From an uncultured Desulfovibrionaceae bacterium (GTDB taxonomy: Bacteria > Desulfobacterota > Desulfovibrionia > Desulfovibrionales > Desulfovibrionaceae): a stretch of DNA of 46,588 nucleotides. Below are positions 11,026 through 46,588 of the stretch, one piece after another. The stretch lies in the NCBI GenBank assembly GCA_964371825.1, contig CAYJOQ010000001.1, positions 1-46,588 of the forward strand, in the 5' to 3' direction. The position numbers were made by a program, and so were the translations under genes. Each line of letters opens with the position of its first letter. Within the stretch, counting starts at the first letter, position 1. Under the pieces are notes generated by a model. The model was not told the origin of the DNA, made no database searches, and saw only the letters and a program-made list of their open reading frames with translations.

Positions 11026-11081
11026 TAGTAGTGGGATAAAAAAAATAGACAGTTCATGGAAAATACGCTAAGTGATAAGGT

Positions 11082-14911: not shown

Positions 14912-14925
14912 TTTTTTTGCTCTAG

Positions 14926-20828: not shown

Positions 20829-21059
20829 GTGCTGAAAAGCTATATAGGCTATTGTAACTACAAGCATTCACACCTTAAGAAGTCACAGAAAAATTGTCAA
20901 AAACAAAGCATGTAATGCGACTTTTTGGAAACTTTTTGACACTATTGCACCTGTTTTTCACGTGCTGACTGACAAAAATTTTGTGTGCCGCAAAATGAGC
21001 CAGAACGTACTTTTGACGGAACCAAAGGGATATTTTGTGCCAACATACCTTTCTGAACA
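20829..21059 (+). repeat. Family-B MITE/REP-like element, full copy B1
   Basis: About 231 bp. Aligns in reverse orientation to 39276-39507, its left half to 26347-26455 (inverted), and its right half to 36444-36557 and 39578-39690 (inverted). Confidence 0.85.
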
Positions 21060-21424
21060 ATATGTATAAACGTGATTTTGTGATTCAACCAGTTAGTGAA
21101 TAAATATACAAAGCCTTAAAAAAATAATTTTATGACCATATTACATGTACTTTTTAGCTTTTATTTTTGTAGCTAAAATATAATATGTTTAAATATATTA
21201 AGCTCTTGTATAGAAAATCGCATACCGTGATAGGCCGTGTGAATAACATAAAAAGCAAGGCATTATCGCATGAATAGCTCGACAAGTTGCACAATATTTG
21301 ATATTTCATGTAGGCTTTATATTTATGTATATTTTTTTTATATACTTCATAATAAAGCTAGTTATACGTGTTATTCTTTCAACAAAAGCATTCATAATGT
21401 ACTATGACCTTTATGGAGGACGGA

Positions 21425-25140: not shown

Positions 25141-25173
25141 TTGGAACTCACATTGTCTTTGTATTGGTATAAA

Positions 25174-26178: not shown

Positions 26179-26346
26179 TAGCAATATACATTATGCTTAT
26201 AGGAAAGTAGAGCGTTGCCTTTTCGTGATTTTTAGCCACATTGACTAACGTTAGTACTCCATACAACCTTACGCAATTCATTACGCAGAGGCTTTTGCTT
26301 TATAACAATAAGACGTAAAAGGCTCAATATTTTGTGATTACATAGT

Positions 26347-26455
26347 AAAAATTGCCGAAAAAACGTAAACAATACGCTTTTTCGGCAATTTTTCTGTGAC
26401 CTCTTAAGGTGTGAGTGCCTGTTGTTACAATAGTCTGTATAGTTTTTCAGTATTG
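26347..26455 (-). repeat. Family-B left-half copy B5, including a 16-bp-stem bidirectional terminator-like hairpin (26347-26393)
   Basis: The reverse complement of 26381-26450 matches 20841-20895. Perfect stem aaaaattgccgaaaaa/tttttcggcaattttt flanked by A and T runs, between convergent genes. Confidence 0.75.
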
Positions 26456-26468
26456 ATTGTTACATGTA

Positions 26469-28493: not shown

Positions 28494-28926
28494 TGTGATG
28501 CTCTCTCCTAAAGTTTTTTGCTCAGCATATCTTGCGTAGCATTGGTCTCTTTACCTAAAAAAAGTATTCTTTTAAAAGTTTTAGGCTTTGACGTAGTTGG
28601 CACTGATAGCAAAAAATGATTATAAAGGCAAGTATGAATATATTATATAGATACTGCGTTTTTCTTAAAATTTAGCTAGTTAACCGTAAATGAATTTCAA
28701 TAAGAATGAAATTTATTAATGCTACGCCATGATATTGTGTGTATTATTGCAAGGCGAGGCTTGTTTGACAAAATACATTTTTTGGGGCATCTTACCTTGT
28801 TCTTAGTGAAACACGTATAAAATAATGGTATGAGCAATATTCATAGCTGTAATTCAATAAAATAGACATACTACAACACAAATGTGTTTTGTTCAAACTT
28901 AACTACAATACATAAGATTAAACTGA

Positions 28927-30759: not shown

Positions 30760-30771
30760 GGGCTGAATATT

Positions 30772-31773
30772 TTGAGTGCACAGATGGCATCTGCTGTAAA
30801 ATCGGCAGTGGTTATACTGAATTATAATAATTGGCAAGATACCATAGCTTGTGTTGAATCTGTTCTTTCAAGTTCAGTACCTCCATATTTTGTTTTTGTT
30901 GTTGATAATGCTTCACCAGATGACTCTTTTGCACGCTTGCAAGCATGGGCTCAAGGCCACTTAGAAGATGAACTTCTTGGGCTTGGAGTAAAACATTCCT
31001 TACAAAAGCCTATTAAGTATAGTGTTTTTACAAATGCAGAACATTCACCTACACAGCCTGATACGCAACTTGTCTTTATAAAAAATGCACAAAATAATGG
31101 ATATTCTGCAGGCAATAATCTAGGTATTAAGCTTGCTATGCGTTTTGGTGCTGATGCTGTATGGATTTTAAATAATGATACTATTATAGAAAAAGATGCT
31201 TTACAGGCCATGCAAAAGTGTCTTTTTTCTAAGGCAAGACCAGGCCTTTGTGGTTCACTTGTTTGCTATGTTGACACAGGCCTTGTGCAGTGTTGTGGTG
31301 GTGGAAAAACTAATCCACTCAACGGTCTTTCTTGTTTATATGGGCATAATGTTACAAGAGAAGAAGCTCGCAAATTTAGTACTAATAGTGTTGAAAAAGA
31401 AATAAATTTTATTTACGGTGCCAGTGTGATGGCAAGTAGAAATTTTATAGAGACAGTAGGGCTAATGGATGAGCGATACTTTCTTTATTGTGAGGAGCAA
31501 GATTGGGCATATAGTGCCAAAGGGCGGTTTGATTTAGCCTATGCTCCTTTAGCAGTAGTACACCACAAAGAAGGCAGTACTACGGGTTTTTCAAGTAAAA
31601 AAATGTCTGTGCGGTCGCTTTGGCATTTGACGCGCAGTCGGATTTTACTTACTTATAAACACAAGCCTTGGGCATTGCCCACAGTGTTTTTAAGCATTGG
31701 TTTTGCGGCAACGCGAATGTTTTGGCGCCGAATTTTCGGCAGAAGATCTTTACCTATAAAAAGTGAAAAATAA
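30772..31773 (+). CDS. Family-2 glycosyltransferase (rhamnosyltransferase-like)
   Basis: 333-aa ORF (TTG start; alternative ATG at 30784) with 'VVILNYNNWQDTIACVESV', 'VVDNASPDDS' and 'NNGYSAGNNLG'. Confidence 0.82.
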   Translation: MSAQMASAVKSAVVILNYNNWQDTIACVESVLSSSVPPYFVFVVDNASPDDSFARLQAWAQGHLEDELLGLGVKHSLQKPIKYSVFTNAEHSPTQPDTQLVFIKNAQNNGYSAGNNLGIKLAMRFGADAVWILNNDTIIEKDALQAMQKCLFSKARPGLCGSLVCYVDTGLVQCCGGGKTNPLNGLSCLYGHNVTREEARKFSTNSVEKEINFIYGASVMASRNFIETVGLMDERYFLYCEEQDWAYSAKGRFDLAYAPLAVVHHKEGSTTGFSSKKMSVRSLWHLTRSRILLTYKHKPWALPTVFLSIGFAATRMFWRRIFGRRSLPIKSEK

Positions 31774-31774
31774 A

Positions 31775-32836
31775 ATGGCATGTTATCTTGTTACCGGTGG
31801 TGCGGGCTTTATTGGCTCCTGTTATGTTTTACAAAGTCGTAAAAATGGTGCGCAAGTTATTAACTTAGATAAGCTCACCTATGCAGGTAATTTAGACAAT
31901 CTTTCTATGCTCGCCAATGATGCAGGGCATGAGTTTGTTCGCGGAGATATTGGCAATGAAGAATTAATTGCCCATTTACTTGAAAAGCATGCTCCAGATG
32001 CCATAATTAATTTTGCGGCTGAATCTCATGTGGATCGTTCCATATTAGATCCTGATGCTTTTATACGTACCAATGTTCTTGGTACTTGCGTATTACTGCG
32101 TGTAGCTCTTAAATATTGGCAAGGCTTAAGTGGTAATAGAAAAAAAGATTTTCGCTTTTTACATGTATCTACCGATGAAGTGTTTGGTACTTTGCACTTA
32201 GATGATGCAGCCTTTACCGAAGATACCCCTTATGCTCCCAACAGTCCTTACTCTGCCTCAAAAGCTGCCAGTGATCATCTTGTGCGATCTTTTCATGAAA
32301 CCTATGGCATGCCTATTTTGATTACAAATTGTTCCAATAACTATGGACCTCGTCAATTCCCTGAAAAATTAATTCCCTTAGTCATTTGTAATGCCCTTGA
32401 AAATAAGCCATTGCCTATTTATGGAAAGGGTGAAAATATTCGTGATTGGTTACATGTGGAAGATCACTGTGCTGCCATTGAAGAAGTATTACAAAAAGGA
32501 ACAGTAGGGCGCACGTATAATATTGGCGGTCGTGCAGAACGAACCAATATAGATGTGGTAAAAACACTTTGTGCTGCTTTAGACCAATTTGTACCACGTG
32601 CACATGGTAAATATGAAGATCTTATTACCTATGTGAGTGATCGTCCTGGGCATGATTTTCGTTATGCCATTGACTGCACACGCATAGAAAAAGAACTTGG
32701 TTGGGTTCCTGCACATACCTTTAATGAAGGTATTTTAGAGACGGTGCGTTGGTACTTAGAAAACCAGGAATGGGTAGGGCGAGCACGCAGCGGTGCATAT
32801 CAAGATTGGCTACAAAAGAACTATACGGCGAGATAA
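31775..32836 (+). CDS. rfbB: dTDP-glucose 4,6-dehydratase
   Basis: The ATG at 31775 lies 2 nt after the GT2 stop (the ORF track starts at GTG 31763). Motifs '[10 protein letters not shown]', 'STDEVFG' and '[11 protein letters not shown]'. Confidence 0.93.
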
Positions 32837-32838
32837 TT

Positions 32839-33726
32839 ATGAAAGAGCGCAAAGGTATTATTTTAGCAGGAGGATCAGGCACACGCTTACACCCCCTTAC
32901 ATTAAGCATCAGTAAGCAGCTTATGCCTATTTATGATAAGCCTATGATTTATTATCCTTTAAGTATTTTGCTACAAGCAGGTATTAAGGATATAAGCATT
33001 ATTTCTACACCAGATCATTTGCCTCTTTTTGAACAATTATTAGGAGATGGCAGTACGTGGGGATGTACTTTTAGATATATAGTACAACCATCACCAGATG
33101 GCTTAGCGCAAGCATTTTTGTTAGCGCGCCCATATATTGAAGGACATCCTTGTTGTCTTGTGCTTGGTGATAATATTTTCTTTGGTCATAATATGGATAA
33201 ACTTTTACAAAGAGCCACTGAACAAGAACGTGGCGCTTCTGTTTTTGGGTATCACGTAAGTGATCCGCAACGTTATGGTGTGGTAGAATTTGATGCAGAG
33301 CAAAAAGCTATCAGCATTGAAGAAAAACCAGAAAACCCGCGTTCTAATTATGCTGTTACCGGTTTGTATTTTTATGATGAAGATGTTGTGGATATTGCAG
33401 CATCCATCAAGCCTTCTGCTCGTGGTGAACTAGAAATTACTGATGTAAATAATGTATATTTGCAACGAGGTGATTTACGTGTTGAGCTTATGGGTCGTGG
33501 TATAGCTTGGCTTGATACAGGCACTCATGATTCCTTGCTTGCCGCATCATCCTATGTGCAAGCTATGCAAACTCGTCAAGGTTTGTATGTGGCTTGTCCA
33601 GAAGAAATTGCATGGCGCAAAGGCTTTATTGACGCTGAGCAATTGCGTGCTTGTGGTTTAGCCTTGCGTAAGTCTGCCTATGGTGAATATTTGTTAGAGC
33701 TAGCTGACGGAAGCAAAGGAAAATAG
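32839..33726 (+). CDS. rfbA: Glucose-1-phosphate thymidylyltransferase
   Basis: The in-frame ATG at 32839 ([21 protein letters not shown]) lies 3 nt after the rfbB stop. The longer ORF from 32749 overlaps rfbB and is unlikely. Confidence 0.93.
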
Positions 33727-33727
33727 T

Positions 33728-34252
33728 ATGGAAATAGTAACAACACCTATACAGGATGTTCTTTTAATAAAACCAAAGGTTTTTGGCGATGCGCGTGGCT
33801 ATTTTGTAGAAACATGGCAACAAAAACGCTATGAAGAAGCAGGTATAAATCTTGCTTTTGTTCAAGATAATCATTCTCGCTCCAGTTACGGAATTTTGCG
33901 CGGTTTACATTTTCAAAAAACTAAACCCCAAGGTAAACTTGTTTCGGTATCCTTTGGTTCAGTTTTTGATGTGGCTGTGGATATTCGTAAAAATTCACCT
34001 ACCTATGGAAATTGGTATGGTGTTGAGTTAACACAAGACAATCAATATCAACTCTGGGTTCCTCCGGGGCTTGCGCATGGTTTTGTGGTTACGTCAGAAG
34101 TGGCACATTTTCATTACAAGGTTACTGATTTTTATGATCCAAGTGATGAAGGTTCTTATTTTTGGAATTCACCTGCACTTGGAATTACATGGCCTGTTGC
34201 AGAACCAAAATTATCTGACAAAGACGCCAATGCAGACCTGTGGGAGAGGTAA
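33728..34252 (+). CDS. rfbC: dTDP-4-dehydrorhamnose 3,5-epimerase
   Basis: 174-aa ORF with 'FGDARGYFVETW', 'RGLHFQ' and 'VPPGLAHGF'. AAAGGA SD upstream. Confidence 0.93.
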   Translation: MEIVTTPIQDVLLIKPKVFGDARGYFVETWQQKRYEEAGINLAFVQDNHSRSSYGILRGLHFQKTKPQGKLVSVSFGSVFDVAVDIRKNSPTYGNWYGVELTQDNQYQLWVPPGLAHGFVVTSEVAHFHYKVTDFYDPSDEGSYFWNSPALGITWPVAEPKLSDKDANADLWER

Positions 34253-34258
34253 GTAATC

Positions 34259-36130
34259 TTGAGATTCATAGAGCTTGTTAAAAAGTTTGGCATTAAAGTT
34301 CAGGAAGAGGGTTTACTGTATACTGTCCAATTCACGTATGATTTTTTTCGTCGTGAATTCTTCCGATTCCTTTACCAAAGAGCAAGGCTACATACTACCA
34401 AGCTCCCCTTTATTAAAGGGCTTAGAAAGGGAAACCCCACTGCTGTAACTAAGGCAAAAAAATATATTTCAGCACCTCTTGATGCTGTTATTTCCATAGA
34501 AGGGCACTGCCATTGCCTTTATGGGCACAACACAGACTTTAGCGGTAGCCGTGCTGTGGTGATTGCTCATTGGGATCCTGACAATACTATTGATGTGTAT
34601 GTTGAGTACTTGTGCAAGCACTTCAAAGACCTTGGTTTTAAGGTAGTAATTTCCTCTGCAAATCCCATTGAAAATACTCTTGTTGCTCGTCGCTGGCAAA
34701 ACTATGCCGATGCTATTGTGTATAGAACTTGTGATGGGTATGACTTTACCTCATGGAAGGCTGCATTGGCGTGCTTTCCTTCGCTATATCAATGTGAAGA
34801 ATTAACGCTTACCAATGATTCTTTTTTTGGCCCCATAGGATCTTTTGCGCCTGTCTATGAACGCATGGAAAAAATATCTTGCGACTTTTGGGGTCTTACA
34901 TACAGCCAAGATGAAGCTCCACATATTCAAAGCTTCTTTATGGTGTTTCATAAAAATGTCTTACAAGATGCAGCTTTTTCTAATTTTATTGCTGCTGTTC
35001 CCCTTGATTCAAGTCGCAAGAAAGCCATTGCGTTTGAGCTTTCACTGGGTATATATTTCACCATGCACGGCTTTCAAGGTGCTACCTATGCCCAAGCTGT
35101 GCAGCATATTCTTCGTAAATATAATCTTGCCACCTATTGCTATGATAAGCTTATAGACTATGGGGTGCCTGTATTAAAAAGAGAAACCTTGCGCAGAAAT
35201 AGCTTAGCGTTTAAAGCCATTATTGCTTTAGAAAGTGGCGAATTTAAAGGGTACCCTCTAGAATTTTGTCATGAATATTTTTTGCGAATAGGCCTTGGAC
35301 CAAGGGGAGTTCTTACGGCTGGTAAACAATATCCTACTTTTCCTCCTGATGTACTTTGTTTATTTGAAAAAATTGACCTTACGCCCATGGTTGAAAAACC
35401 TAAAGAAGAGCCTTTTGCCGTAGCCTTACATTGCTTTTATCCAGAATGCTTGCCTGATTTGGAAGTATATTTACGAAACTTGCCTCACTATGCTCATATT
35501 TTTATAACTACCGATACTGAAGAGAAGAAAGAAGAAATTTTACGCTTTTTTGCAAAAATGACTTTTGACGCCATTGAGGTAAGAATTTGCCCCAATCTCG
35601 GATGGGATGTAGCACCTTTTTATATTTCATTACAGGATGTTATAAAGAAATACCCATTATTGTTAAAAATTCATGTAAAAAAATCCACCCATGTACAAGG
35701 TAACTTTACCATGTATTGGAAAAATTCCATGTATGGTTCACTTATGGGGAGTAAGGAACACATAGAAAACATTTTACAGTATTTGCAAAATAATGAACAT
35801 ATGGGTGTTATTGCGCCAACACAATACCCTCCATGTATGCCTATTATTCAAGGTTTTAACAATACTGATATGTCACGCCTTTTAAAGCACTATAATATCA
35901 CTTTACCGCATAATACCATGATTAATTTTCCGGCAGGAACCATGTTTTGGTGTCGTACGAAGGCATTATATCCTTGGCTGAACGTTAATTTGCAATATGA
36001 CGACTTTCCTCCTACTACTAAGCGTGATGGAACGTTGGCGCATGCTTTAGAAAGGCTTATTTTCTTTGGTTGCGGTATTGAGGGTTTAAGATGGGGTAAG
36101 GTTGGTATGCCAAAGGGTGTAAAATTGTAA
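34259..36130 (+). CDS. RgpF-family glycosyltransferase, paralogue 2
   Basis: 623-aa ORF (TTG start after GGAGAGG). Long collinear similarity to 26469-28493, for example 'YRTCDGYDFTSWKAALACFPSLY', 'LHCFYPE...FITTDT', 'GTMFWCR' and 'DGTLAHALERL'. Confidence 0.8.
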   Translation: MRFIELVKKFGIKVQEEGLLYTVQFTYDFFRREFFRFLYQRARLHTTKLPFIKGLRKGNPTAVTKAKKYISAPLDAVISIEGHCHCLYGHNTDFSGSRAVVIAHWDPDNTIDVYVEYLCKHFKDLGFKVVISSANPIENTLVARRWQNYADAIVYRTCDGYDFTSWKAALACFPSLYQCEELTLTNDSFFGPIGSFAPVYERMEKISCDFWGLTYSQDEAPHIQSFFMVFHKNVLQDAAFSNFIAAVPLDSSRKKAIAFELSLGIYFTMHGFQGATYAQAVQHILRKYNLATYCYDKLIDYGVPVLKRETLRRNSLAFKAIIALESGEFKGYPLEFCHEYFLRIGLGPRGVLTAGKQYPTFPPDVLCLFEKIDLTPMVEKPKEEPFAVALHCFYPECLPDLEVYLRNLPHYAHIFITTDTEEKKEEILRFFAKMTFDAIEVRICPNLGWDVAPFYISLQDVIKKYPLLLKIHVKKSTHVQGNFTMYWKNSMYGSLMGSKEHIENILQYLQNNEHMGVIAPTQYPPCMPIIQGFNNTDMSRLLKHYNITLPHNTMINFPAGTMFWCRTKALYPWLNVNLQYDDFPPTTKRDGTLAHALERLIFFGCGIEGLRWGKVGMPKGVKL

Positions 36131-36443
36131 CATCCATCTGTTTATACAACATATATGGTGTTTATTCTGTTGGGTATGTTTTGCTAAAAATATTATAAAA
36201 TATACGTTTTTTGCAATCGCAATGCGTTTTTTTATTCTTGCGTTTACCATAAAATTTGAGTAAAAAAACAAGCTCTTAACGTGGATTATACGTATTAAGA
36301 ATAATCATTTAATAACATACTAATTGTTTAAAATAATTTTGTTTTTTAAGTATAATACATAAATAAAAATGGTGAAAATACGAGCATACAATGCATTTTA
36401 CGTATTTTTACTTTGTGATGCGTAGCAATATGTGATTGCGTGC

Positions 36444-36557
36444 GAAATTTTGCGCTACGTAAAATAAGCCAGAACGTACTTCTAGCTGCCCCCTAGGGAT
36501 ATTTGGAGCGTGCGTGCCTTTACAAAAGTGCGTAAATACACATTTTTTAGGTTCGAC
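36444..36557 (+). repeat. Family-B right-half copy B4
   Basis: 'ttttgcgctacgtaaaataagccagaacgtact...ggagcgtgcgtgccttt' aligns with 20970-21059. Confidence 0.7.
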
Positions 36558-36574
36558 AAAATAAATACAGTATG

Positions 36575-36590
36575 ATCTAAAATTTTAGAT
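36575..36590. promoter_or_regulatory. Perfect 16-bp palindrome atctaaaattttagat about 28 nt upstream of the MBOAT start; possible operator
   Basis: Read directly from the sequence. It is AT-rich, so chance occurrence is not excluded. Confidence 0.2.
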
Positions 36591-36617
36591 TATGCCCTTA
36601 TGTAAAAGTGAGATTTT

Positions 36618-38132
36618 ATGGTCTTTAGTTCTTCAATTTTTCTTTTTGCATTTCTCCCCTTGATAATTTTTTTGGTCTTTATCGGGCCACGCTGTGGTGA
36701 AAAGGGTGTGTTATGGCGTAATACATGCCTCACCATTGGCAGTTTTATTTTTTATGCTTGGGGTGAACCTTTGTGGGTTATTCCACTCTTTGTACTTGCT
36801 TGGTTTAACTATGCTTTAGGCAAGCGCATTGAAGTTGCAAAAAAAGAAGCACTGCGCTTAGAAGAGCAAGGTTTGTGCTTTGCACAAATACAAACTAAGG
36901 CCAAACATTTGGTATATTTTGGTATTCTTTGTAATCTTGGCTTACTCTTTGTGGTAAAGTACGGCATATGGTTATTAAATTCTGTATTCTTAATTCAATT
37001 ATATCCATCTATTGGAATTAATCCTTCACCAGTAGTTTTTGAAACCTTCCCTCTGCCCTTGGGTGTAAGCTTTTTCACCTTTCAAGCTGCAAGTTATCTT
37101 ATTGATGTATACAGAGGTGATATTGAAGCTGCCAAGCGCTATATCAACTTTTCTTGCTATTTAACTATGTTTTCGCAGCTAGTGGCAGGCCCCATTGTGC
37201 GTTATGCCGATATTGCCGATGAAATTACATCGCGCCGAGACAATATGGGCATGTTTTATAGTGGAATGAAGCGTTTTGTGGTTGGTCTTGCAAAAAAGAT
37301 TCTCATAGCCAATCAAGTTGCTTTACTTGCTGATTGGGCATTTTCTTTACCTGATGTGGGTTTAAGCACAGAGTATGCTTGGGTAGGAATTTTAGCCTAT
37401 GCCATGCAAATTTATTTTGACTTTTCTGCATACTCAGACATGGCTATAGGCATTGGTCTTATTTTTGGTTTTAATTACCTTGAAAACTTTCGCCACCCAT
37501 ATAGGGCAAGATCCATGCAGGATTTTTGGCGTAGGTGGCATATTTCTTTATCTTCGTGGCTTAGGGATTATTTATACATACCTCTTGGCGGTAGCAGAGG
37601 CTCAAACTTCCAAACATACAGAAATTTATTTATAATTTTCTTCATTTGCGGACTGTGGCATGGCGCAGCCATTACCTTTATTATTTGGGGACTTTGGCAT
37701 GGCTTTTTCCTCGCACTTGAAAGAGGCTTCTTGCATAATCTGTTACAGAAATCACCTGTGATTTTGCAGCATGCGTATGTTTGGGGTGTATTTTTGCTAG
37801 GTTGGGTTTTCTTTCGCTGCGAAAGCCTTGGGCATGTTATAGCATATGTTAAAGCCTTGATGGGTATAGGACCTGCCGGTCTTGGCTCCATAGTTGGTTT
37901 TATACAATCTCAGCCGTATTATTCTGCCTTGCTTGCAGCTGCAATTATCATAAGCTTTGGCGGTATAACCAATGCCTTTACACAATATTACGACAAGATT
38001 CAAACGCAATCATCCACAACAAAGGTTGCTGTTGAAGGAAGCCTTATTGCTGTTGGTGCCGTAGTATGTTTCTTCTGCGGTATTTTTATCTTGAGTGATA
38101 GTTATAATCCATTTATTTACTTTAGGTTTTAA
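36618..38132 (+). CDS. MBOAT-family polysaccharide O-acyltransferase (AlgI/DltB-like)
   Basis: 504-aa multi-TM ORF. N-terminal 'MVFSSSIFLFAFLPL' and the catalytic-His region 'FWRRWHISLSSWLRDYLYIPLGGSRG'. Confidence 0.88.
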   Translation: MVFSSSIFLFAFLPLIIFLVFIGPRCGEKGVLWRNTCLTIGSFIFYAWGEPLWVIPLFVLAWFNYALGKRIEVAKKEALRLEEQGLCFAQIQTKAKHLVYFGILCNLGLLFVVKYGIWLLNSVFLIQLYPSIGINPSPVVFETFPLPLGVSFFTFQAASYLIDVYRGDIEAAKRYINFSCYLTMFSQLVAGPIVRYADIADEITSRRDNMGMFYSGMKRFVVGLAKKILIANQVALLADWAFSLPDVGLSTEYAWVGILAYAMQIYFDFSAYSDMAIGIGLIFGFNYLENFRHPYRARSMQDFWRRWHISLSSWLRDYLYIPLGGSRGSNFQTYRNLFIIFFICGLWHGAAITFIIWGLWHGFFLALERGFLHNLLQKSPVILQHAYVWGVFLLGWVFFRCESLGHVIAYVKALMGIGPAGLGSIVGFIQSQPYYSALLAAAIIISFGGITNAFTQYYDKIQTQSSTTKVAVEGSLIAVGAVVCFFCGIFILSDSYNPFIYFRF

Positions 38133-38134
38133 GC

Positions 38135-39223
38135 ATGAAAATATTACAAAAAGTAACTATAGCTTTTTTTGGGCTTTGGCTTTTATCCGGTTTTGCTGGG
38201 GTTCTTATTGGTGTTGATGAAGGCAAATTTTCTGCCTCTGAAATGCGCAAGCCCACAACCTTTAAAAATCTTAGCAAGTATGATAATGCCCAACAATTTC
38301 TTAAGGATGTTGAAAACTTCTTTAATGATAGAGTATACTTTCGCGGAGCATATATTGCGCTTTATCAAGCTCTTGGTCTTGAAAGTTTAAGTGCTGCGTT
38401 TAAAGTTAATAATAGTAGTGTTAAGGGTAGTGATGATTGGTTATTTTTGGGGAATTCTTATTCACAGGTACTTGATTATACAAAGAATGAAGGAAAGCTC
38501 GACACTGCTGCTGTAGCGCATAGAGTAAAACAATTTAAGCATTTACAAGATTTAGCAGCAAAGTATTCAATTCCGTTTACTGTGCTTATTGGACCTAATA
38601 AACACACTATTTATAGTGAATTTTTGCCTGAATGGTTTAAACCTAAATCTGAATATCGTTTTGCTGATGCTGTGCTTGATTTGGCACAAAAAGAGCACGT
38701 TCATGTTATTTACCCTAAAAAAGAAATTTTAGCTGAAAAAGCACGTGCTACGAGTCAAGGTACGCGCATTTATTATAAGGATGATACACATTGGAATCAT
38801 GCGGGCGCCTTTGTTGCATTTAAAGAGCTGTGGGGAGAGTTACAAAAACAAGGAACCTTGTTTGATTTACCTAAAGCCATACGCCTTGAAGATTCTAAAA
38901 AGCCATTTAATGGTGATCTTATCAGTATTGGAAAATATGATGATAGCTATAAGGATGAGCTTGATTATAAATATGTATTAGATAGTGCGACGGATCCTAA
39001 TAATCTCAAAAAAGGACACCTTTTACTCCTTGCTGACTCCTATTCTGAAGCTTTAATGCCTTTATATGATATGGCTTTTGCTAAAATTACTCGTCTTCAC
39101 TGGACAACAATTACCATGCCTAAATATAAAGAGCTGGTAGAAACGTTACGTCCTGATGTTATTATTTTTGAAACTGTAGAAAGAGATTTAAGTCACGCAG
39201 GCATGTTACTTGGTGAATTTTAA
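38135..39223 (+). CDS. AlgJ/AlgX-like SGNH-type O-acetyltransferase partner
   Basis: 362-aa ORF with an N-terminal signal anchor and the 'YYKDDTHWNHAGAF' (DxHW) motif typical of AlgJ/AlgX. Starts 2 nt after the MBOAT stop. Confidence 0.75.
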   Translation: MKILQKVTIAFFGLWLLSGFAGVLIGVDEGKFSASEMRKPTTFKNLSKYDNAQQFLKDVENFFNDRVYFRGAYIALYQALGLESLSAAFKVNNSSVKGSDDWLFLGNSYSQVLDYTKNEGKLDTAAVAHRVKQFKHLQDLAAKYSIPFTVLIGPNKHTIYSEFLPEWFKPKSEYRFADAVLDLAQKEHVHVIYPKKEILAEKARATSQGTRIYYKDDTHWNHAGAFVAFKELWGELQKQGTLFDLPKAIRLEDSKKPFNGDLISIGKYDDSYKDELDYKYVLDSATDPNNLKKGHLLLLADSYSEALMPLYDMAFAKITRLHWTTITMPKYKELVETLRPDVIIFETVERDLSHAGMLLGEF

Positions 39224-39236
39224 TCTTTTTTGAGTG

Positions 39237-39270
39237 TCTTGCACAATGAATTATGCAGGAGTCTTTTTTT
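39237..39270 (+). terminator. Terminator hairpin plus T7 after the O-acetylation pair (also a repeat module)
   Basis: Imperfect 11-bp stem tcttgcacaat/attatgcagga followed by ttttttt. An inverted copy lies at 10820-10846. Confidence 0.5.
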
Positions 39271-39275
39271 ACGTA

Positions 39276-39507
39276 GTCGACGCTGAACAACACATTTTAA
39301 TGTGCTGTTCAGAAAGGCACGCCCACTCCAAATGCCGCTTTGCGGCCGCCAGAAGCAAGTTCTGGCTTATTTTGCGTGGCGCAAAATTTTTCTTACAGAA
39401 AAATTTCGTTAGTCAGCACATGAAGAACAGGTGTAATAGTGTCGATAAATTGCCCCTTACATATGAAGTATACAATTACAAATAGTTGTTTGGTTTTTCA
39501 GTGCTGA
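39276..39507 (-). repeat. Family-B near-full copy B2 (inverted relative to B1)
   Basis: Aligns to the reverse complement of 20829-21059. Carries hairpin 39283-39296/39299-39312. Confidence 0.85.
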
Positions 39508-39577
39508 CTACTTATAATTAAACGTATTATAAAAAAGTCGGGCATGTACAAATGAGTATATGTCCGGCTTTGTATAT

Positions 39578-39690
39578 CGTCGATGCTGAAAAACGCATTT
39601 CCATGCGTGTTTCAAAAAGGCACATACCTCTAAATGCTCCTTTAGGGCCGCTAGAAGCGCATTCTGACGTATTTAACGCCACGCAATTCT
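39578..39690 (-). repeat. Family-B right-half copy B3, in tandem with B2
   Basis: 'tcgatgctgaaaaacgcatttccatgcgtgtttcaaaaaggcaca...gccgctagaagcgcattctg' parallels 39278-39370. Hairpin 39588-39598/39603-39613. Confidence 0.75.
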
Positions 39691-39711
39691 CATGTATCCC
39701 CCAAAAAAAGT

Positions 39712-40857
39712 TCACTCCAATATTTCATAACGTTTAACGCAAGATTGACATTGCGGATGTGCAGGTTTTTTCTGTGCATGCTGCTGCCTAAAGGTCACAA
39801 AGGCATCTTTTTGCCAAATATCCATAACATATTCATTATTAACATTTCCATATATAGCTTGAGTATTACAGTCAACAGTAAAGTATTGCTTTATGTTTTG
39901 GTCATAAGAAAGATCTTTTGTGATGCTGTGTTCTTTAAGGGGAATATTTAGGTATACACAAGGAGAGATGTCGCCTTTGGCGTTGATATAAAGATTTTTT
40001 TGGATATTTTCTCTGCATTGTGTACTTGCGGTATTGCTAGGTAAGGCATAGTGCAGTTGCACACCGTATTCTAGAGCCAGCGTTTTTGCTTTAGTTAGTA
40101 TTTCTTTAGCTTTTTGTAATTTTTCTACATCATTAGGCGTAATGGCTAGATGTGCAAGGGTACTATGTGGCACGTAATCAAGAGTGCTTATGATGGCTGT
40201 TGTTATTCCTAACTGATGCATGATTTTAGGCAGCGTAAGAACGGCCTCCATACGATCAGCTAAAAGTATGTATGCTATATGAATTTCTAAATGCACAGCC
40301 ATATGCTTTTTACGTAAAGACTGTAAATTCAATATGTTTTCATAGACTTTATCAAAATTTGCTCCTTTGCGTATGGCATTGGTGGTTGTGTCTGTTCCGG
40401 CGAGAGAAAAGGCAATAATGTCTATGCCGCTATTAAGAATAGTATGATACATATTTTCTGTAAGATGCAGACCGCATGAGGTTGTGGAAACAAGACAATC
40501 GGCTTTACGGGCAAAGTGTACATAGTCAAAAAAATGTGGGTGTAAAAAGGGTTCTCCCCAGCCTTGAAGATGTACCCTGGTACTTTGCTTAAAAAGGGGC
40601 CAAAGATTTGCAAGGGTTTGAGGTAGCATATGTGTTCCTTGCCAGTGCTTAGCCATGGTGGTATGCGGACAATAGGCACATTGCGCAGTACAATGGGAGG
40701 TTACTTCCACTTGTAAACAGTCAAAGGCGCGAGGTTTGGGGCGTATGAGATCTTTAATAAGTTCAAAAACTGATGGGCTTGCAAACATGGGGTGGTGTAA
40801 AATATTATCGTCATCTGTTGCAAGAAGAGCTTTGGATAATGGGTATTGATTGTGCAT
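39712..40857 (-). CDS. Radical SAM enzyme with truncated SPASM/twitch C-terminal domain
   Basis: ORF 39712-40953. The Met at 40857 gives a TAATG overlap with the upstream gene. 'HCTAQCAYCPH' (CX3CX2C), 'GWGEPFL', and C-terminal 'C-x13-GDISPC' plus 'CQSC'. Confidence 0.82.
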   Translation of the reverse strand: MHNQYPLSKALLATDDDNILHHPMFASPSVFELIKDLIRPKPRAFDCLQVEVTSHCTAQCAYCPHTTMAKHWQGTHMLPQTLANLWPLFKQSTRVHLQGWGEPFLHPHFFDYVHFARKADCLVSTTSCGLHLTENMYHTILNSGIDIIAFSLAGTDTTTNAIRKGANFDKVYENILNLQSLRKKHMAVHLEIHIAYILLADRMEAVLTLPKIMHQLGITTAIISTLDYVPHSTLAHLAITPNDVEKLQKAKEILTKAKTLALEYGVQLHYALPSNTASTQCRENIQKNLYINAKGDISPCVYLNIPLKEHSITKDLSYDQNIKQYFTVDCNTQAIYGNVNNEYVMDIWQKDAFVTFRQQHAQKKPAHPQCQSCVKRYEILE

Positions 40858-41759
40858 TATGTAGTGCTCCGAGAAAATAGGCGCGTAAGCCAAGTAATGG
40901 CATTGTTTTGTGTTTGTGGGCTTGTACGATGAGAGAGCGGTGTTTTTTGCCAATGTGTTTCCACAAAGGGGAGTAGGGGCTCAGCGCCCCATTTTTCTTT
41001 AAAAAATCGTATGCCCTTATTAATACCAAGGCCAAGATTACACATGGTATAGCCTTTGGCATGAGCACATTGTAAAAGGCTTGTGAGGAGAGCTTCACTG
41101 CTGCCAGCTGGTGCGTTTTGAATGCGCATACTAAACATATAAAAGGCTGTGTGTAAGGAAGTAAAGTCAGCCATAGAAAATGCCACAAGGGCATTGGTAT
41201 TTTTTTCAAAAGCAGAAAATATGCGCATATTTGGTACTTTTTTGCAATAGAGCCCAAGGTTTTGAAAAATTATTCCCATTTCTTTACGTATATTTTCACG
41301 ACGTATGTAGCTGAGCATAAGCTCTTGATGGGCGCCAGTCCATGCTTTTGCCCCATATTCTTGAGTAATATATATATTTTGTAGAGCTTTGCTAGTCATG
41401 TGACGTATATTTTGATTCTTTTGTATATTAAAGGGAAGCCTTATGAAATAATAAGCATCATTATGGCTTATGGCATTTTCAGGGGCTATTGGCGGTCTTG
41501 ATGGCGCTAACACAGTAATGTGTGTAATTGTATCTAAGTCCATAATGTGTTTAATACATGTTTCAAGGCCTGTATTTTGTTGCATATCGTTGAGATTATA
41601 GCCTATAATTATAGCGTGGTCATGCTGCGTGTGTATGATAAATTCTCCAAAAAGATGTGATTGCACAGAGCTTACGGCCTGTACATAGGGGAGAAGTTGG
41701 TCAGGGGTATAGGCTTTATAACTGGCCATATCAATGCTAAGTGAAGTATTGCTAAACAT
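40857..41759 (-). CDS. FemAB / MprF-C (DUF2156)-like dupli-GNAT protein, stand-alone
   Basis: 300-aa ORF. Paralogous to the N-terminal half of the upstream 624-aa protein; shares 'NLGLGINKGIRFFKEKWGAEPLLPF' against 'HLGLGVNEGITRFKRKWGAQASLPF'. The G-x-x-x-FK-x-K-(F/W)-G motif resembles FemX-type transferases. Fold assignment is from memory. Confidence 0.55.
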   Translation of the reverse strand: MFSNTSLSIDMASYKAYTPDQLLPYVQAVSSVQSHLFGEFIIHTQHDHAIIIGYNLNDMQQNTGLETCIKHIMDLDTITHITVLAPSRPPIAPENAISHNDAYYFIRLPFNIQKNQNIRHMTSKALQNIYITQEYGAKAWTGAHQELMLSYIRRENIRKEMGIIFQNLGLYCKKVPNMRIFSAFEKNTNALVAFSMADFTSLHTAFYMFSMRIQNAPAGSSEALLTSLLQCAHAKGYTMCNLGLGINKGIRFFKEKWGAEPLLPFVETHWQKTPLSHRTSPQTQNNAITWLTRLFSRSTT

Positions 41760-41761
41760 AG

Positions 41762-43636
41762 TTATTTTTGTAGTAATGCTTTGAGTTTGTGACTGAGGGT
41801 TGGCGTAACCTTTGTTAGGGTAAAACCATCTTCCACAAGCATATGTTGTAAATTGAGCATATGGGCTGTACCAACAAAAACACAGGCGCGACCTTGCTCT
41901 AAAAAGGGGCGCATGCGACGACGAAAACGTTCATCCCTTACATTAATGATAGTGTGTGTACGTGTTGGAAATTCAGCACTTGTGCCCATGAGTTTTTCTA
42001 AATTCCCTTGCAAGTACGCTTGAACATTTTTGCGTATCATGCGTGGCCAAGCGTTACAATTTTGAAAGTAACGTATAACTCTTTGTGGCGGCACTGCATT
42101 AAGGGAGGCTAATTGTTCCTCAAGACTTTCCATGGCGACCACATGCTTTCCCATATCATGGGCCAGATGCCAAGCTTCAAGGTCAACTGATTGTTGCCAT
42201 CCCTTACGCTCTAAAAAGCCTGTCCAGAGAGTAAATAGGGCAGTCCAAGGGCGAGTATGGGTAAGATACCAACGCACATCTACAAGGCGTTTAGCTTCCA
42301 TATTTAATGCCCTTGCTAACAAACCTTCTGGGCCACGTACCATACGTTCTAGATTACGAATTTCTTGTTCTGTTATGTAGGGAAGTAATGGTTGTTGCTC
42401 TGGGGTAAGACGCTTGCCTTCTGCCTCCACTTCTTGCAAACTTAAAGAATCTAAAGGGCCTTCAAAAAGTACTGTGTCTACAGAGTCAAAAAGCTTCCTA
42501 AACGCATTTTCAAAAGAATAACAAAAAAAATGTGCCGAGCCGCCAATCCAAGATACTTTATGGTTTTTTTGCACTTTCCAAAGCATGGCATAGGGACGTT
42601 GTTCGGGCAATGAAGCAAGGATTTGCCTTTTGGATTTACCCATTATTTGTAAAAGTGCAGCATTTTCTTGTTTTTGTGTTGCAGCAATGCCTGTACTTTG
42701 GGATTGTAAGAGTTCTTTAAAAAGCGTCTGAATATCACTGTGTAATGACGTATCCTTGGGTTTTTCTTCCCAAGAAGCAAGCTTGAATGGTAGGCTAGCT
42801 TGAGCTCCCCATTTGCGCTTAAAACGAGTAATGCCTTCATTGACACCAAGGCCAAGATGAATAAAGGATTTGTGTTCTTCACGAGCCCTTTGAAGCATAA
42901 ATGCAAAGAGGGCATCACTTGCATGGGGGGTATAGTGTTTGCGTGAGTGCGCACCCAGTAGATAGGAACAAAAATTTTGGGGAGCAAAATCCATGAGTAG
43001 GGCTGCAGCAAGGTTTCCTTCAGCATCATAGGCATTTAACATACGAATATCTGTGTTAGGATGTGCAAGGGCTGTGGGAGTTGCGACAAAGAGGCGCTGC
43101 ACCATAGAAGACATGGGAGCTGGCGAAATCACCTGCGTTAGAGGAAGAGAGGCAGAAGATATATGCTCTATATTTGCTGATAATGGCAAAGACGATGTTC
43201 TTTGCTGTAAAAATTCTGTCCAAAGGGCATGATGTTTTGGGGTAAAGATCTTATCTTCTTCTATGTGAAGAATGTTTTGTGCTTTTTCTACGGCCCTTTG
43301 TACTTTTTTGGGTATGGATGCATTGGCAGAAAGAGTATAATAAACATCTTGTTCTTGTATAAAGGGTACAAGTTCTTCTGGTAACTCAGGCGCAATGGCA
43401 AAGCATGTTGTTGCTCCTGTTTTTTCTAGGGCCATGTTCTTAGCGTGTAAAAAATCATCATGGGTATACTTTGCGTTTGGGCCTAAGGGATAGCCAATAA
43501 TTGTGAGCCAATCATCCTTAGCAAAACATAGATAGTTATGCACAATGCATGGGGTACCACCAGAAACGGCATGCATAAAGTCTACAGAATGTTCAGGTAT
43601 TGTAGCTATGTTCTTAAGAGCATGTATATCAACCAT
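41762..43636 (-). CDS. Fusion protein: FemAB/MprF-C-like dupli-GNAT module plus TraB/GumN (Tiki-like) module
   Basis: 624-aa ORF with GGAGA SD. N-terminal ~300 aa as above. The C-terminal ~280 aa carry TraB/GumN-type 'WIGGSAHFF' and 'VFVGTAHMLN' motifs. Confidence 0.6.
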   Translation of the reverse strand: MVDIHALKNIATIPEHSVDFMHAVSGGTPCIVHNYLCFAKDDWLTIIGYPLGPNAKYTHDDFLHAKNMALEKTGATTCFAIAPELPEELVPFIQEQDVYYTLSANASIPKKVQRAVEKAQNILHIEEDKIFTPKHHALWTEFLQQRTSSLPLSANIEHISSASLPLTQVISPAPMSSMVQRLFVATPTALAHPNTDIRMLNAYDAEGNLAAALLMDFAPQNFCSYLLGAHSRKHYTPHASDALFAFMLQRAREEHKSFIHLGLGVNEGITRFKRKWGAQASLPFKLASWEEKPKDTSLHSDIQTLFKELLQSQSTGIAATQKQENAALLQIMGKSKRQILASLPEQRPYAMLWKVQKNHKVSWIGGSAHFFCYSFENAFRKLFDSVDTVLFEGPLDSLSLQEVEAEGKRLTPEQQPLLPYITEQEIRNLERMVRGPEGLLARALNMEAKRLVDVRWYLTHTRPWTALFTLWTGFLERKGWQQSVDLEAWHLAHDMGKHVVAMESLEEQLASLNAVPPQRVIRYFQNCNAWPRMIRKNVQAYLQGNLEKLMGTSAEFPTRTHTIINVRDERFRRRMRPFLEQGRACVFVGTAHMLNLQHMLVEDGFTLTKVTPTLSHKLKALLQK

Positions 43637-43658
43637 ATATTCTCCAGCGGTATAACAA

Positions 43659-43694
43659 GGCTGTTGAAAAACTGTAATCTACATCGTCAAATTC
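43659..43694 (+). repeat. Family-C repeat unit, copy C2
   Basis: ggctgttgaaaaactgtaatctacatcgtcaaattc against 14876-14911. Lies 23 nt upstream of the 624-aa gene start. Confidence 0.8.
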
Positions 43695-44175
43695 ATTTTT
43701 TGCTCAAGTCGAGTGCCAAAAGAGTACATGCCCTTCGCAAAACACTTCATCTTTCTCATTTCTTACACTTCATGCTTTATTTCTGCAATTTTGCCAATGC
43801 AGTGTGACTATTTCGTTTTTTATTATGATTGGTTACTATATTTTTACTGCCGACTATGTAACCGACGCTGAGCAACATGTTTTTATGTTTTTTAAATATT
43901 TTTTTATTTCAAATGTTTATCATATTTTTTAATGTTAATTATAAACATATACTAAAAAAATATATAAAGAGCTAGTACATCAGACAGCTAAAAAACGCAC
44001 TACAAGAGCTGTTATGAGCAAAATTTATTAAAAATGTACATCGAATGCTTGTTTTACGATAGTTTTTGACTTTCATAACAATATCTTTATTTTGAAATTA
44101 TATACTACTATGCTATTTTTGCATATCTTAACTGCGTACACAATGCTTTTTACGCATATATAAAAAGGAAAAAAA

Positions 44176-45134: not shown

Positions 45135-46409
45135 TTGCATATGCAAGCAACAACACGCCCTCCACAGATCTACTTAGAACAAAGCGATCAAAAGCATCGT
45201 TTTCATATTATGTTTAAGCCCATTGGCGCGCAATGCAATCTTAGATGTAGGTATTGCTATTATTTACATAAGAAAGATGTACTTTTGCAATACAAAAAAC
45301 AAGATAATGCGCAACATGCTGCTTTTACCATGAGTGATGCTACTCTTGAAGCTGTTATTGCTGCATATATTACATCTAATGAGCATGAAAATATTGTATT
45401 TTCTTGGCAAGGGGGTGAACCCACATTATTAGGAGTACCATTTTTTGAAAAAGTTGTGCGTTTACAAGCAAAGCACAATACCTTGCGCAAAAATATTGCC
45501 AATACCGTGCAAACAAATGGAACGTTACTTACCAAGGATTGGGCAAGCTTTTTAAAAGAGCATGACTTTTTGGTAGGGCTTTCCCTTGATGGACCGGAAG
45601 AGTTGCACGATATGTATCGTTTTGATTTGCAAGGTAATGGAAGCTTTGCAAAAGTTATGCGTGGTTTAGAGCATTTGCATAAAGAAAGTGTGCCCTTTAC
45701 TACATTGACAACTGTTAATAGACACAATGCTAAAAAACCTCTTGAGGTATATAATTTTCTAACACAAACTGTAGGTTCAACCTATGTTCAATTAAACCCT
45801 TGTGTAGAGCTGTTATCATTTGATAGCAAAGCTCCGCATCATTGGGATAAAACTACATTACCGCATATAAAAAATTACAAAAATTCTAATAAAGCACAAA
45901 AGTATATGACTCCATGGTCTGTGATTCCCGAAGATTGGGGATCATTTTTATGTGCTATTTTTGATACGTGGAAGGAAAGAGATTTGGGGCGTGTTTTAGT
46001 TAATTGGTTTGAAACTGCTGTGGCCCAAACGTTAAACCTTCCTGCACAAATATGTACCACAGGGCAAATTTGTGGCAAGGGAGTGGCTGTTGAGCATGAT
46101 GGCAGTGTGTATAGTTGTGATCATTATGTAAATGAAGAATACTGTCTTGGTAATATTCATACAACAGACCTAAAAAGTTTAGTTTTTTCTGCGCGTCAAC
46201 AAGCTTTTGCCTTTAAAAAACAGCGCGAACTCTCTGAACAGTGCCTGCACTGCCCTCACGGTACACTTTGCTGGGGCCAGTGCCCACGCCATCGTTTTGT
46301 ACATACTGCATATGGCGCATATCCTATAAATTATCTATGTCCTGGTTTTAAGCAATTTTATACCCATGCAAAACCATATATTAGAGCTATAGCTGAACAG
46401 TGTTTATAG
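45135..46409 (+). CDS. Anaerobic sulfatase-maturase-like radical SAM/SPASM enzyme
   Basis: 424-aa ORF (TTG at 45135; ATG at 45141). 'FHIMFKPIGAQCNLRCRYCYY', 'WQGGEPTLL', and a full SPASM signature 'DGSVYSC...CLHCPHGTLCWGQCP'. Confidence 0.85.
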   Translation: MHMQATTRPPQIYLEQSDQKHRFHIMFKPIGAQCNLRCRYCYYLHKKDVLLQYKKQDNAQHAAFTMSDATLEAVIAAYITSNEHENIVFSWQGGEPTLLGVPFFEKVVRLQAKHNTLRKNIANTVQTNGTLLTKDWASFLKEHDFLVGLSLDGPEELHDMYRFDLQGNGSFAKVMRGLEHLHKESVPFTTLTTVNRHNAKKPLEVYNFLTQTVGSTYVQLNPCVELLSFDSKAPHHWDKTTLPHIKNYKNSNKAQKYMTPWSVIPEDWGSFLCAIFDTWKERDLGRVLVNWFETAVAQTLNLPAQICTTGQICGKGVAVEHDGSVYSCDHYVNEEYCLGNIHTTDLKSLVFSARQQAFAFKKQRELSEQCLHCPHGTLCWGQCPRHRFVHTAYGAYPINYLCPGFKQFYTHAKPYIRAIAEQCL

Positions 46410-46470
46410 CACTATTTCATTAGTTTAGACTGCGAGAAATACATATTATGATCGACACTGAAAAACAAAA

Positions 46471-46588
46471 TGAGAGTCCTGCATAATTATTTTCCAATTT
46501 TATTTTTGTGCTTTTGCAATAAATTTCCTTAAATTTGAAAATTTACTTGTGCAGGACAAAAGGCACAAAAATCAATCGTTTAACTGCG
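46471..46588 (-). repeat. Family-A repeat, copy A3 (inverted; cut by window end)
   Basis: The reverse complement aligns with 10907-11025 over about 118 nt with few mismatches. 46471-46525 is an exact reverse complement of 1-55. Confidence 0.9.

Follow-up and report, generated by a model that had tools for sequence, protein, structure and literature searches.

What could a bacterium make with an operon in which two proteins resembling aminoacyl-tRNA-dependent transferases are encoded together with a hydrolase domain of the Tiki type and a radical S-adenosylmethionine (radical-SAM) enzyme? The question is raised by contig CAYJOQ010000001.1 of an uncultured Desulfovibrionaceae bacterium (GenBank assembly GCA_964371825.1), the whole 46,588-nt length of which is the window analyzed here. 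The genes concerned, which we call the triad, are three open reading frames (ORFs) on the minus strand: ORF1 (41762-43636) encodes a 624-aa protein in which a double-GNAT domain (G1) is fused to a TraB/Tiki-like hydrolase domain, ORF2 (40857-41759) encodes a 300-aa stand-alone paralogue of that double GNAT (G2), and ORF3 (39712-40857) encodes a 381-aa radical-SAM enzyme with a twitch-like auxiliary-cluster domain. An initial annotation had singled out this operon and could not place it in any described pathway, and in full-text literature searches we likewise found no published description of the triad or its pathway. Taken singly, the parts are members or look-alikes of known enzyme families; it is the combination that was not found described.

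Gene Organization and Conservation of the Triad

The tight coupling that had been reported for the three minus-strand genes was present where it had been placed: ORF1 and ORF2 are separated by a 2-nt gap (the TAA of ORF1, then CT, then the ATG of ORF2), and ORF2 and ORF3 share the sequence TAATG, in which the stop codon TAA of the former runs into the start codon ATG of the latter. The ORF3 start at ATG 40857 is backed by the N-termini of 27 homologues; these disfavor the upstream TTG at 40953, which a mechanical ORF list had given as the start and which was rejected. On re-translation, all of the motifs quoted in the initial annotation (LGLGVNEGITRFKRKWG, GGSAHFF and VGTAHML in ORF1, NLGLGINKGIRFFKEKWGA in ORF2, and CTAQCAYC in ORF3) were located at computed coordinates. 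The lack of a membrane segment in all three proteins was upheld as well, in that no 19-residue window in ORF1, ORF2 or ORF3 exceeded a Kyte-Doolittle value of 1.6; the LPG_synthase_TM protein encoded in the same window served as a control and has 76 windows above this value. All three triad proteins appear to be cytoplasmic.

A genome scan found relatives of ORF1 encoded in 437 species genomes, and in the best 80 of these the genes are in the same order almost throughout. Nearly all of the best 80 belong to the Desulfovibrionaceae, among them Bilophila wadsworthia ATCC 49260 and Desulfovibrio piger ATCC 29098, and one is a member of the Syntrophobacteraceae. Synteny was compared in 88 mostly Desulfovibrionaceae loci. 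The order ORF1-ORF2-ORF3 is kept in about 70 of the 88 loci, so the triad genes are neighbors in related genomes; most deviations are contig ends, and four or five of the 88 loci deviate where the contig is long enough. The genes are also found joined to one another, as G1::TraB::G2 fusions of 870-950 aa at 13 loci and as G2::radical-SAM fusions of 640-760 aa at 4 loci.

The genes beyond the triad vary by genus (polA in one case, PPK2 in another), and all-against-all clustering of the flanking ORFs yielded no conserved extra neighbor, only lineage synteny in at most 11 of the 88 loci. The statement that no convincing precursor-peptide gene is present was likewise borne out, as no conserved extra ORF of at least 60 aa lies beside the triad in the 88 loci (shorter ORFs were not clustered systematically), and in one locus (L001) only 24 and 15 nt separate the triad from polA and a convergent gene, which leaves no space for a precursor gene. 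The marks of a cluster for peptides synthesized ribosomally and modified post-translationally (RiPPs), namely an adjacent precursor gene and a RiPP recognition element (RRE) domain, were both absent from the triad.

A wider search gave 203 clusters at E<=1e-30 among 1.84 billion representatives, and many of these are split forms in which the double GNAT and TraB are separate proteins of ~280 aa each. Using stand-alone TraB sequences, 80 metagenomic loci were recovered. In these, G1 is directly upstream of TraB almost everywhere, and G2 lies beside the radical-SAM gene in every case in which the contig is long enough to show both; the position of one pair relative to the other is variable, the two being adjacent, divergent, ~5 kb apart, or not found together within 8 kb. 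Because the metagenomic loci keep each pair together, and the same pattern is implied by the fusions, the system is, judged by these arrangements, made up of two pairs of ancient standing, in which TraB is the partner of G1 and the radical-SAM enzyme that of G2.

It is thus strongly supported that the operon combination is real. The outcomes to which the initial annotation was most exposed (rejection of its family assignments by profile or structure searches, genes that are not neighbors in related genomes, and a match to an already characterized pathway) were each checked, and the finding held.

Domains of the ORF1 Protein

ORF1 had been read as a FemX/MprF-C-like double GNAT fused to a TraB domain, and this reading is supported by a Pfam match for TraB and by an AlphaFold2 model and Foldseek matches for G1. 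All of the 560 homologues of ORF1 have two domains or are further fused. The AlphaFold2 model of the protein has a mean predicted local distance difference test score (pLDDT) of 86 and folds the N-terminal half into two α/β lobes. For G1 (aa 1-295; 42752-43636, minus strand), the pLDDT is mostly >90 over residues 1-145 and 175-295, with a lineage-specific insert at aa 149-171 (43124-43192) at pLDDT <50, and the two lobes are predicted by the model and by Foldseek to be tandem GNAT lobes forming one domain. The best PDB matches of G1 in Foldseek were L-PGS 4v36 (2e-9), A-PGS 4v34, FemX 7z6a/1xe4, the clavulanate tandem GNAT 2wpw and Sba18 9wqy, and further matches included MprF 5vrv and 6lv0, FemX 4ii9, and Sbb17, which is, like Sba18, a tRNA-dependent peptide synthase. 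Against L-PGS, A-PGS, FemX, MprF and Sba18, the Foldseek probability was 1.00, with E values of 2e-9 to 1e-7 and target-normalized template modeling scores of ~0.5-0.6.

At the level of profiles, Acetyltransf_6 (PF13480) was matched by 29 of 53 orthologues at E<0.01, with some scoring over its threshold; one orthologue (P0086) reached 35.7 bits on PF13480 (cut-off 22), and another (P0090) reached 27.1 bits on PF09924 (cut-off 27.5). The family profile of ORF1 gave nothing at E<=1 against PDB sequences. The G1 motif LGLGVNEGITRFKRKWG (42806-42856) contains F272-K273, K275 and W276, which are invariant in the 53 orthologues, and in the AlphaFold2 model F272-K273 sits on a positively charged helix, EGITRFKRK (aa 267-275).

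The TraB/PrgY/GumN (TIKI superfamily) domain occupies aa 351-608 (41813-42586, minus strand) and matches the Pfam profile TraB_PrgY_gumN (PF01963) at 118.4 bits against a cut-off of 26.8 (E=6e-34), over profile positions 1-262 of 263; all 53 orthologues match this profile. The TIKI catalytic set combines a His-Glu pair with another His and a nearby basic residue (PMC6254334), and this set, mapped by motif order and spacing, is present in ORF1. The residues in question are H369 in GGSAHFF (42524-42544), E392 (42461-42463), H592 in VGTAHML (41855-41875), and R559/R567/R570, and G366/A368/H369, E392, G589/A591/H592 and R559/R567/R570 are all invariant in the 53 orthologues. The stand-alone TraB relatives have H29, E52, H251 and R226/R233, which are invariant or nearly so. 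Because the profile match is strong and the His-Glu pair, the second His and the Arg are kept, the TraB domain of ORF1 is probably active.

The Stand-Alone Paralogue Encoded by ORF2

The claim that ORF2 is a paralogue of the ORF1 transferase module was substantiated by BLASTP, which aligned it to the N-terminal domain of ORF1 with E=1e-15 and 26% identity over ~290 aa, and by an invariant Phe-Lys pair common to G1 and G2 within a G-x-x-x-F-K-x-K-W-G motif. In G2, the motif NLGLGINKGIRFFKEKWGA (40983-41039, minus strand) carries F253-K254 and W257, which are invariant in 30 orthologues. The signals of ORF2 in Pfam, NCBIfam and PDB sequence searches are weak, and all are to the LPG_synthase_C/MprF family.

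A review of FemX-type transferases gives as their features a double GNAT, a basic tRNA-binding helix and a catalytic Lys (PMC12945691). The catalytic Lys is Lys305 in FemX, and DhpH-C has Phe328-Lys329; the successive action of DhpH-C and DhpK is a precedent for two FemX-like transferases working in sequence (PMC12945691). By resemblance to these motifs, K273 of G1 and K254 of G2 may be equivalent to FemX Lys305.

The Radical-SAM Enzyme Encoded by ORF3

ORF3 had been described as a radical-SAM enzyme whose C-terminus is twitch-like, with one cluster, and both parts of this description agree with its cysteines. The CX3CX2C motif (40669-40692, minus strand) contains the invariant C56, C60 and C63, and the Pfam scores were 51.9 bits for Radical_SAM (PF04055; cut-off 29.5) and 45.1 bits, also above the cut-off, for SPASM. 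Two extra invariant cysteines, C121 and C128, are present in the core. The C-terminal domain has just four cysteines that are invariant in the homologues (C281, C300, C370 and C373; within 39739-40017), in the arrangement CX18C...CX2C, with C300 preceded by G295. The full seven-cysteine SPASM motif (CX9-15GX4C ... CX2CX5CX3C ... C) was not found in ORF3, which has only half of it. Because of this four-cysteine pattern, the twitch label of the initial annotation is better than the SPASM label of Pfam, and the C-terminus is, by its cysteine pattern, a one-cluster twitch arrangement. The pattern resembles that of BtrN.

The best NCBIfam matches of ORF3 were TIGR04317 (tungsten-enzyme radical-SAM maturase) and TIGR04311, at 128.3 bits, far below the respective cut-offs of 380 and 400. 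The structural model has a pLDDT of 90, and three short helices precede its core, which begins near residue 45; the N-terminal 45 residues are modeled as these short helices, with no RRE-like recognition domain. The nearest folds in Foldseek were DesII, SuiB, BlsE, SkfB, anSME and BtrN, with CteB and PqqE also close; the best fold match was DesII, and the best PDB sequence match was BtrN. A lineage-specific, low-confidence insertion at aa 306-335 (39853-39942; pLDDT <50) is common only to ORF3 and its closest relative, P0122.

Accessory Genes in Other Lineages

Outside the Desulfovibrionaceae, two further gene families were found with the system. A YeiH-family transporter gene (PF03601/TIGR00698; annotated as "putative sulfate export") adjoins the system in at least three lineages. 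In addition, the NF038143 "HYxxLL" family, the members of which are uncharacterized 200-aa proteins each with one hydrophobic segment near the N-terminus, is represented by two or three tandem paralogues near G2 and the radical-SAM gene. The lineages with HYxxLL and YeiH genes are Desulfonatronum lacustre, a Desulfobacterales metagenome-assembled genome and one metagenomic lineage, and the genes lie between or beside the pairs (loci L008, L089, L117, L134 (e.g., 10588-13280), L135, L151, L167 and L173). Homologues of the two families were absent from the window and from the surroundings of the triad in the Desulfovibrionaceae loci, and a full-text search found no literature on HYxxLL/NF038143.

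Several single loci have neighbors related to tRNA or cysteine: tgt overlaps ORF1 in Desulfonatronum lacustre (L089, 6178-7296), cysS is directly upstream of the system in L094 (3446-4840), and L091 has glnS ~3 kb from the system as well as nifU-nifS-cysK (852-2537 and 7729-11641). A cysteine/thiol or tRNA theme based on cysS, nifS/cysK, tgt and glnS was considered and dropped, as these are single loci that recur too little and may have arisen by chance.

Flanking Sequences and Window Context

Upstream of the triad is an AT-rich region (43637-44175), presumed to be the promoter region, in which a copy of the dispersed repeat family D5 lies at 43658-43709 and part of a hairpin repeat lies near 43853-43885. 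The region downstream of ORF3 (39224-39711) contains copies of dispersed hairpin repeats at 39276-39420 and 39579-39690, and these probably serve as terminators. Promoter-like and terminator sites did not exceed shuffled expectation, and Rfam searches (the whole window at gathering thresholds and the upstream region at E<=1) revealed no riboswitch or T-box.

According to the initial annotation, repeats fence the locus. Those at 39276-39690 and 43658-43709 are real, whereas the fence was rejected, in that the same elements are dispersed across the contig and recur at five other intergenic sites. They are 35-110 nt long, several have hairpins, and they are similar to repetitive extragenic palindromic or terminator-like elements. 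Copies in the window are at 14875-14972, 20832-21052, 26379-26450, 36414-36521, 39276-39420, 39579-39690 and 43658-43709, and the elements downstream of ORF3 recur at 14929-14972 and 36414-36521.

A second radical-SAM/SPASM gene, on the plus strand at 45135-46409, clearly encodes an anaerobic sulfatase maturase, as it scores 447.5 bits on TIGR03942 (cut-off 349). This gene begins 1.5 kb beyond ORF1, and because it is transcribed away from the triad and is not conserved beside it elsewhere, it is probably unrelated to the triad.

On the other side of the triad, 25141-39223 is occupied by a large cell-surface polysaccharide cluster that includes LPG_synthase_TM, two RgpF, an ABC exporter, GT2 and rmlB/rmlA/rmlC genes, together with a pair encoding an MBOAT protein and an AlgX-like SGNH protein, which suggests O-acetylation. 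Elsewhere, a 417-aa ORF on the minus strand (9409-10662) was matched by neither Pfam nor NCBIfam at the thresholds applied, and a plus-strand gene (21404-24985) encodes a 1193-aa protein of unusually long architecture, with N-terminal two-thirds similar to phosphoenolpyruvate synthase (576 bits, cut-off 598) and a C-terminal region (aa 883-1072) similar to enzyme I of the phosphotransferase system. The ends of the window (1-60 and 46466-46588) repeat one another in inverted orientation (98% over 60 nt), and a third copy is at 10908-11026 (119 nt, 96%). Because the window is a whole contig with matching ends, the assembly probably broke at this repeated element.

Discussion

What, then, might the triad do? 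We tentatively favor, with rather less than even confidence, aminoacyl-tRNA-dependent aminoacylation of a cytoplasmic acceptor combined with hydrolytic processing and radical tailoring. In this mechanism, G1 and G2 would each take an aminoacyl group from an aminoacyl-tRNA and attach it, at an amine or a hydroxyl, to a soluble acceptor in the cytoplasm, either a small metabolite or an envelope precursor linked to a nucleotide. Transfer would proceed as in FemX, MprF-C, DhpH-C/DhpK and Sba18, by way of the Phe-Lys pair that the second GNAT lobe carries on its basic helix. The TraB domain would cleave an ester or amide bond of the substrate or product of G1, for trimming, deprotection or turnover, and ORF3 would carry out a 5'-deoxyadenosyl-radical step on the G2-linked intermediate, such as oxidation, decarboxylation, deamination or cross-linking. 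What the analysis shows is how the genes are arranged, which folds and families they encode, that residues of catalytic type are kept, and that the operon is conserved, forms fusions and divides into two pairs; the tRNA dependence, the order of the steps and the nature of the acceptor are the parts of this scheme that we infer. For a small-molecule substrate we count the absence of a conserved neighboring family, the lack of space for a precursor gene in L001, and the YeiH transporter gene in other lineages.

Several observations weigh against this mechanism. The ORF1 protein of the window has no Pfam or NCBIfam match above threshold to FemAB, Acetyltransf_6 or LPG_synthase_C; ORF2 reaches LPG_synthase_C only at E=0.039 (13.5 bits against a cut-off of 27.5); and the ORF2 profile gives only non-significant matches to PDB sequences (E ~0.4). 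The equivalence of K273 and K254 to FemX Lys305 is proposed from motif resemblance. The acyl-CoA-dependent clavulanate enzyme 2wpw, VipF, MAB_4324 and NMT score similarly in the Foldseek list of G1 and, because such acyl-CoA-dependent tandem GNATs are in the same list, tRNA dependence is not derivable from the fold. Many of the G1-TraB pairs in the metagenomic loci are without G2 and the radical-SAM gene within 8 kb, and for this reason the four activities need not form one linear pathway. The nearest folds of ORF3 are a mixture of sugar-modifying (DesII, BlsE and BtrN) and peptide-modifying (SuiB, SkfB, CteB, anSME and PqqE) enzymes. Lastly, Tiki/TraB peptidases are found beside SPASM radical-SAM maturases in RiPP-like loci of the graspetide type (PMC8939145), which favors a peptide or protein substrate.

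The last two points lead to an alternative that we regard as unlikely, although it deserves a hearing, namely maturation by the system of a protein or peptide whose gene lies elsewhere in the genome, with TraB trimming it, G1 and G2 adding amino acids, and the radical-SAM enzyme cross-linking or oxidizing it. The amino acids would be added to an N-terminus or a side chain, as by Fem and L/F-transferases, and in other lineages the targets could be the HYxxLL paralogues, which adjoin G2 and the radical-SAM gene in tandem in Desulfonatronum, the Desulfobacterales genome and the one metagenomic lineage. Such a role would suit TIKI members of known activity, which are mostly endopeptidases (Tiki, RRSP and PrgY/TraB; PMC6254334), and it would suit ORF3, the best NCBIfam relatives of which are named maturases and the close folds of which include SuiB, SkfB, CteB, anSME and PqqE. 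However, there is no conserved candidate substrate gene beside the triad in the 88 loci, the HYxxLL homologue is missing from these loci and from the window, and ORF3 has no RRE-like domain and has the BtrN-like four-cysteine pattern and not the seven-cysteine SPASM pattern of most peptide maturases. Furthermore, neither the L/F-transferase nor ATE1 was in the top 50 Foldseek matches of G1.

It is less probable still that G1 and G2 are tandem GNATs that depend on acyl-CoA or acyl-acyl carrier protein, such that a metabolite is N-acylated and then processed. The clavulanate enzyme (2wpw/2wpx), VipF (6wqb), MAB_4324 (7q3a) and NMT are within one to three orders of magnitude in E of the best G1 matches, and NCBI labels the orthologues "GNAT family N-acetyltransferase", but the top structural matches and the sole Pfam and NCBIfam matches are to the tRNA-dependent clade (LPG_synthase_C, MprF and FemAB-like Acetyltransf_6). 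The G-x-x-x-F-K-x-K-W-G motif also appears to resemble the catalytic-Lys motif of the FemX and MprF C-terminal domains, and the tgt (L089), cysS (L094) and glnS (L091, ~3 kb) genes near the system point the same way, anecdotally and in single loci.

The initial annotation had raised a further proposal, a split MprF in which the transferases aminoacylate a membrane lipid and a separately encoded MprF-N-like protein flips the product. The protein in question (25141-26178) is a genuine LPG_synthase_TM (PF03706) protein at 111.8 bits, and aminoacyl-phosphatidylglycerol synthase domains are the best Foldseek matches of G1. An aminoacyl-lipid hydrolase is a common companion of MprF systems, and a fused TraB of the esterase type would parallel this pairing. 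The split itself is nonetheless very unlikely, in that the PF03706 gene is 14 kb from the triad, on the opposite strand and inside a rhamnan/glycosyltransferase cluster (RgpF, GT2, ABC and rml), and no PF03706 homologue is near the system in 90 related loci. Neither ORF1 nor ORF2 is joined or linked to LPG_synthase_TM as the synthase of a bifunctional MprF is, and G1, G2 and TraB are without a membrane segment or anchor. The likeness of the system to MprF-C (L-PGS 4v36 and A-PGS 4v34; LPG_synthase_C/DUF2156) lies in the top structural match of G1, the weak signals of ORF2 and the orthologues that come close to the Pfam threshold; both the TraB and the radical-SAM partner are foreign to MprF biology.

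We give almost no credence to the triad being a mobile accessory or defense module since, although its flanking genes vary by genus, ORF3 weakly matches prokaryotic viperin models (46 bits) and repeats lie on either side in the window, PADLOC gives no match for ORF1 or ORF2, the viperin likeness is limited to the generic radical-SAM core, protein identity follows taxonomy across the 437 species genomes, there is no integrase or transposase near the triad, the GC content of the locus is that of the contig, and the repeats are dispersed housekeeping intergenic elements.

The triad was also compared with described systems. G1 and G2 are similar to FemABX and its relatives (FemX of Weissella viridescens, DhpH-C/DhpK of dehydrophos, PacB, VlmA, and Orf11/Sba18/Sbb17) in the double-GNAT fold, in being soluble and cytoplasmic, and in the presence of two paralogues per cluster, as for DhpH-C/DhpK and FemX/A/B; the basic lobe-2 helix with an invariant Phe-Lys (PMC12945691) would also be common to both, if the positional match holds. 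They differ from FemABX in that the window proteins have no significant FemAB Pfam match and ~10-15% identity to the PDB members, and in that fusion or pairing with TraB or a radical-SAM enzyme was found in no described Fem-type system.

The TraB domain shares Pfam membership, the catalytic set and an appended domain, thought to be substrate-recruiting, with the TIKI/TraB/PrgY/GumN proteins (the Wnt protease Tiki, RRSP, erythromycin esterases and enterococcal TraB/PrgY). It differs in being apparently cytoplasmic and fused to an aminoacyl-transferase-like domain, whereas those members that have been characterized are macrolide esterases or else proteases of the secreted, membrane-bound or toxin kind. 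ORF3 has the CX3CX2C core and C-terminal Fe-S domain of twitch/SPASM enzymes (BtrN, DesII and BlsE; anSME, SuiB and SkfB), but it is far below all curated NCBIfam cut-offs, has the extra C121 and C128, and has a double-GNAT partner to which it is sometimes fused. The G2::radical-SAM fusions invite an analogy, and only an analogy, with Elp3, which acts on tRNA: in both, a radical-SAM domain is covalently coupled to a GNAT-type domain and a tRNA connection is plausible; the domain order is reversed, Elp3 has a single acetyl-CoA-binding GNAT/lysine acetyltransferase domain instead of a FemX/MprF-like double GNAT, and the two are related via superfamilies only.

Public annotations of these proteins read "TraB/GumN family protein", "GNAT family N-acetyltransferase", "hypothetical protein", "radical SAM protein" and, erroneously, "translation initiation factor IF-2". 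A genome comparison of 2013 noted that the TraB cluster of orthologous groups is enriched in host-associated Desulfovibrio and gave nothing further on the system (PMC3608642).

Conclusions

The triad presents two candidate tRNA-dependent transferases whose partners, coupled to them and sometimes fused, are a hydrolase of the Tiki family and a radical-SAM enzyme, pairings that we did not find in the literature. Few aminoacyl-tRNA-dependent transferases act outside the ribosome, and new classes of them have brought cell-wall bridges, lipid aminoacylation and antibiotic assembly to light. Were the transferases to prove to be ordinary acyl-CoA enzymes, the triad would be one more conserved operon without an assigned function.

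The fusions and the two-pair modularity lead to testable predictions about which enzymes work together. Because cultured and genetically approachable bacteria carry the system (B. wadsworthia ATCC 49260 and D. piger ATCC 29098), knockout combined with metabolomics is feasible. The best 80 carriers come almost entirely from a family that counts medically relevant, hydrogen-sulfide-producing gut bacteria among its members, and B. wadsworthia and D. piger are gut pathobionts. What these bacteria may possess, and we put this forward as a cautious proposal that could well prove wrong, is a previously unrecognized two-transferase aminoacyl-tRNA pathway in which each transferase is tied to its own processing enzyme, and which would make an aminoacylated metabolite or an envelope modification, conserved in the Desulfovibrionaceae and related sulfate reducers and syntrophs and joined by YeiH and HYxxLL partners in other lineages.

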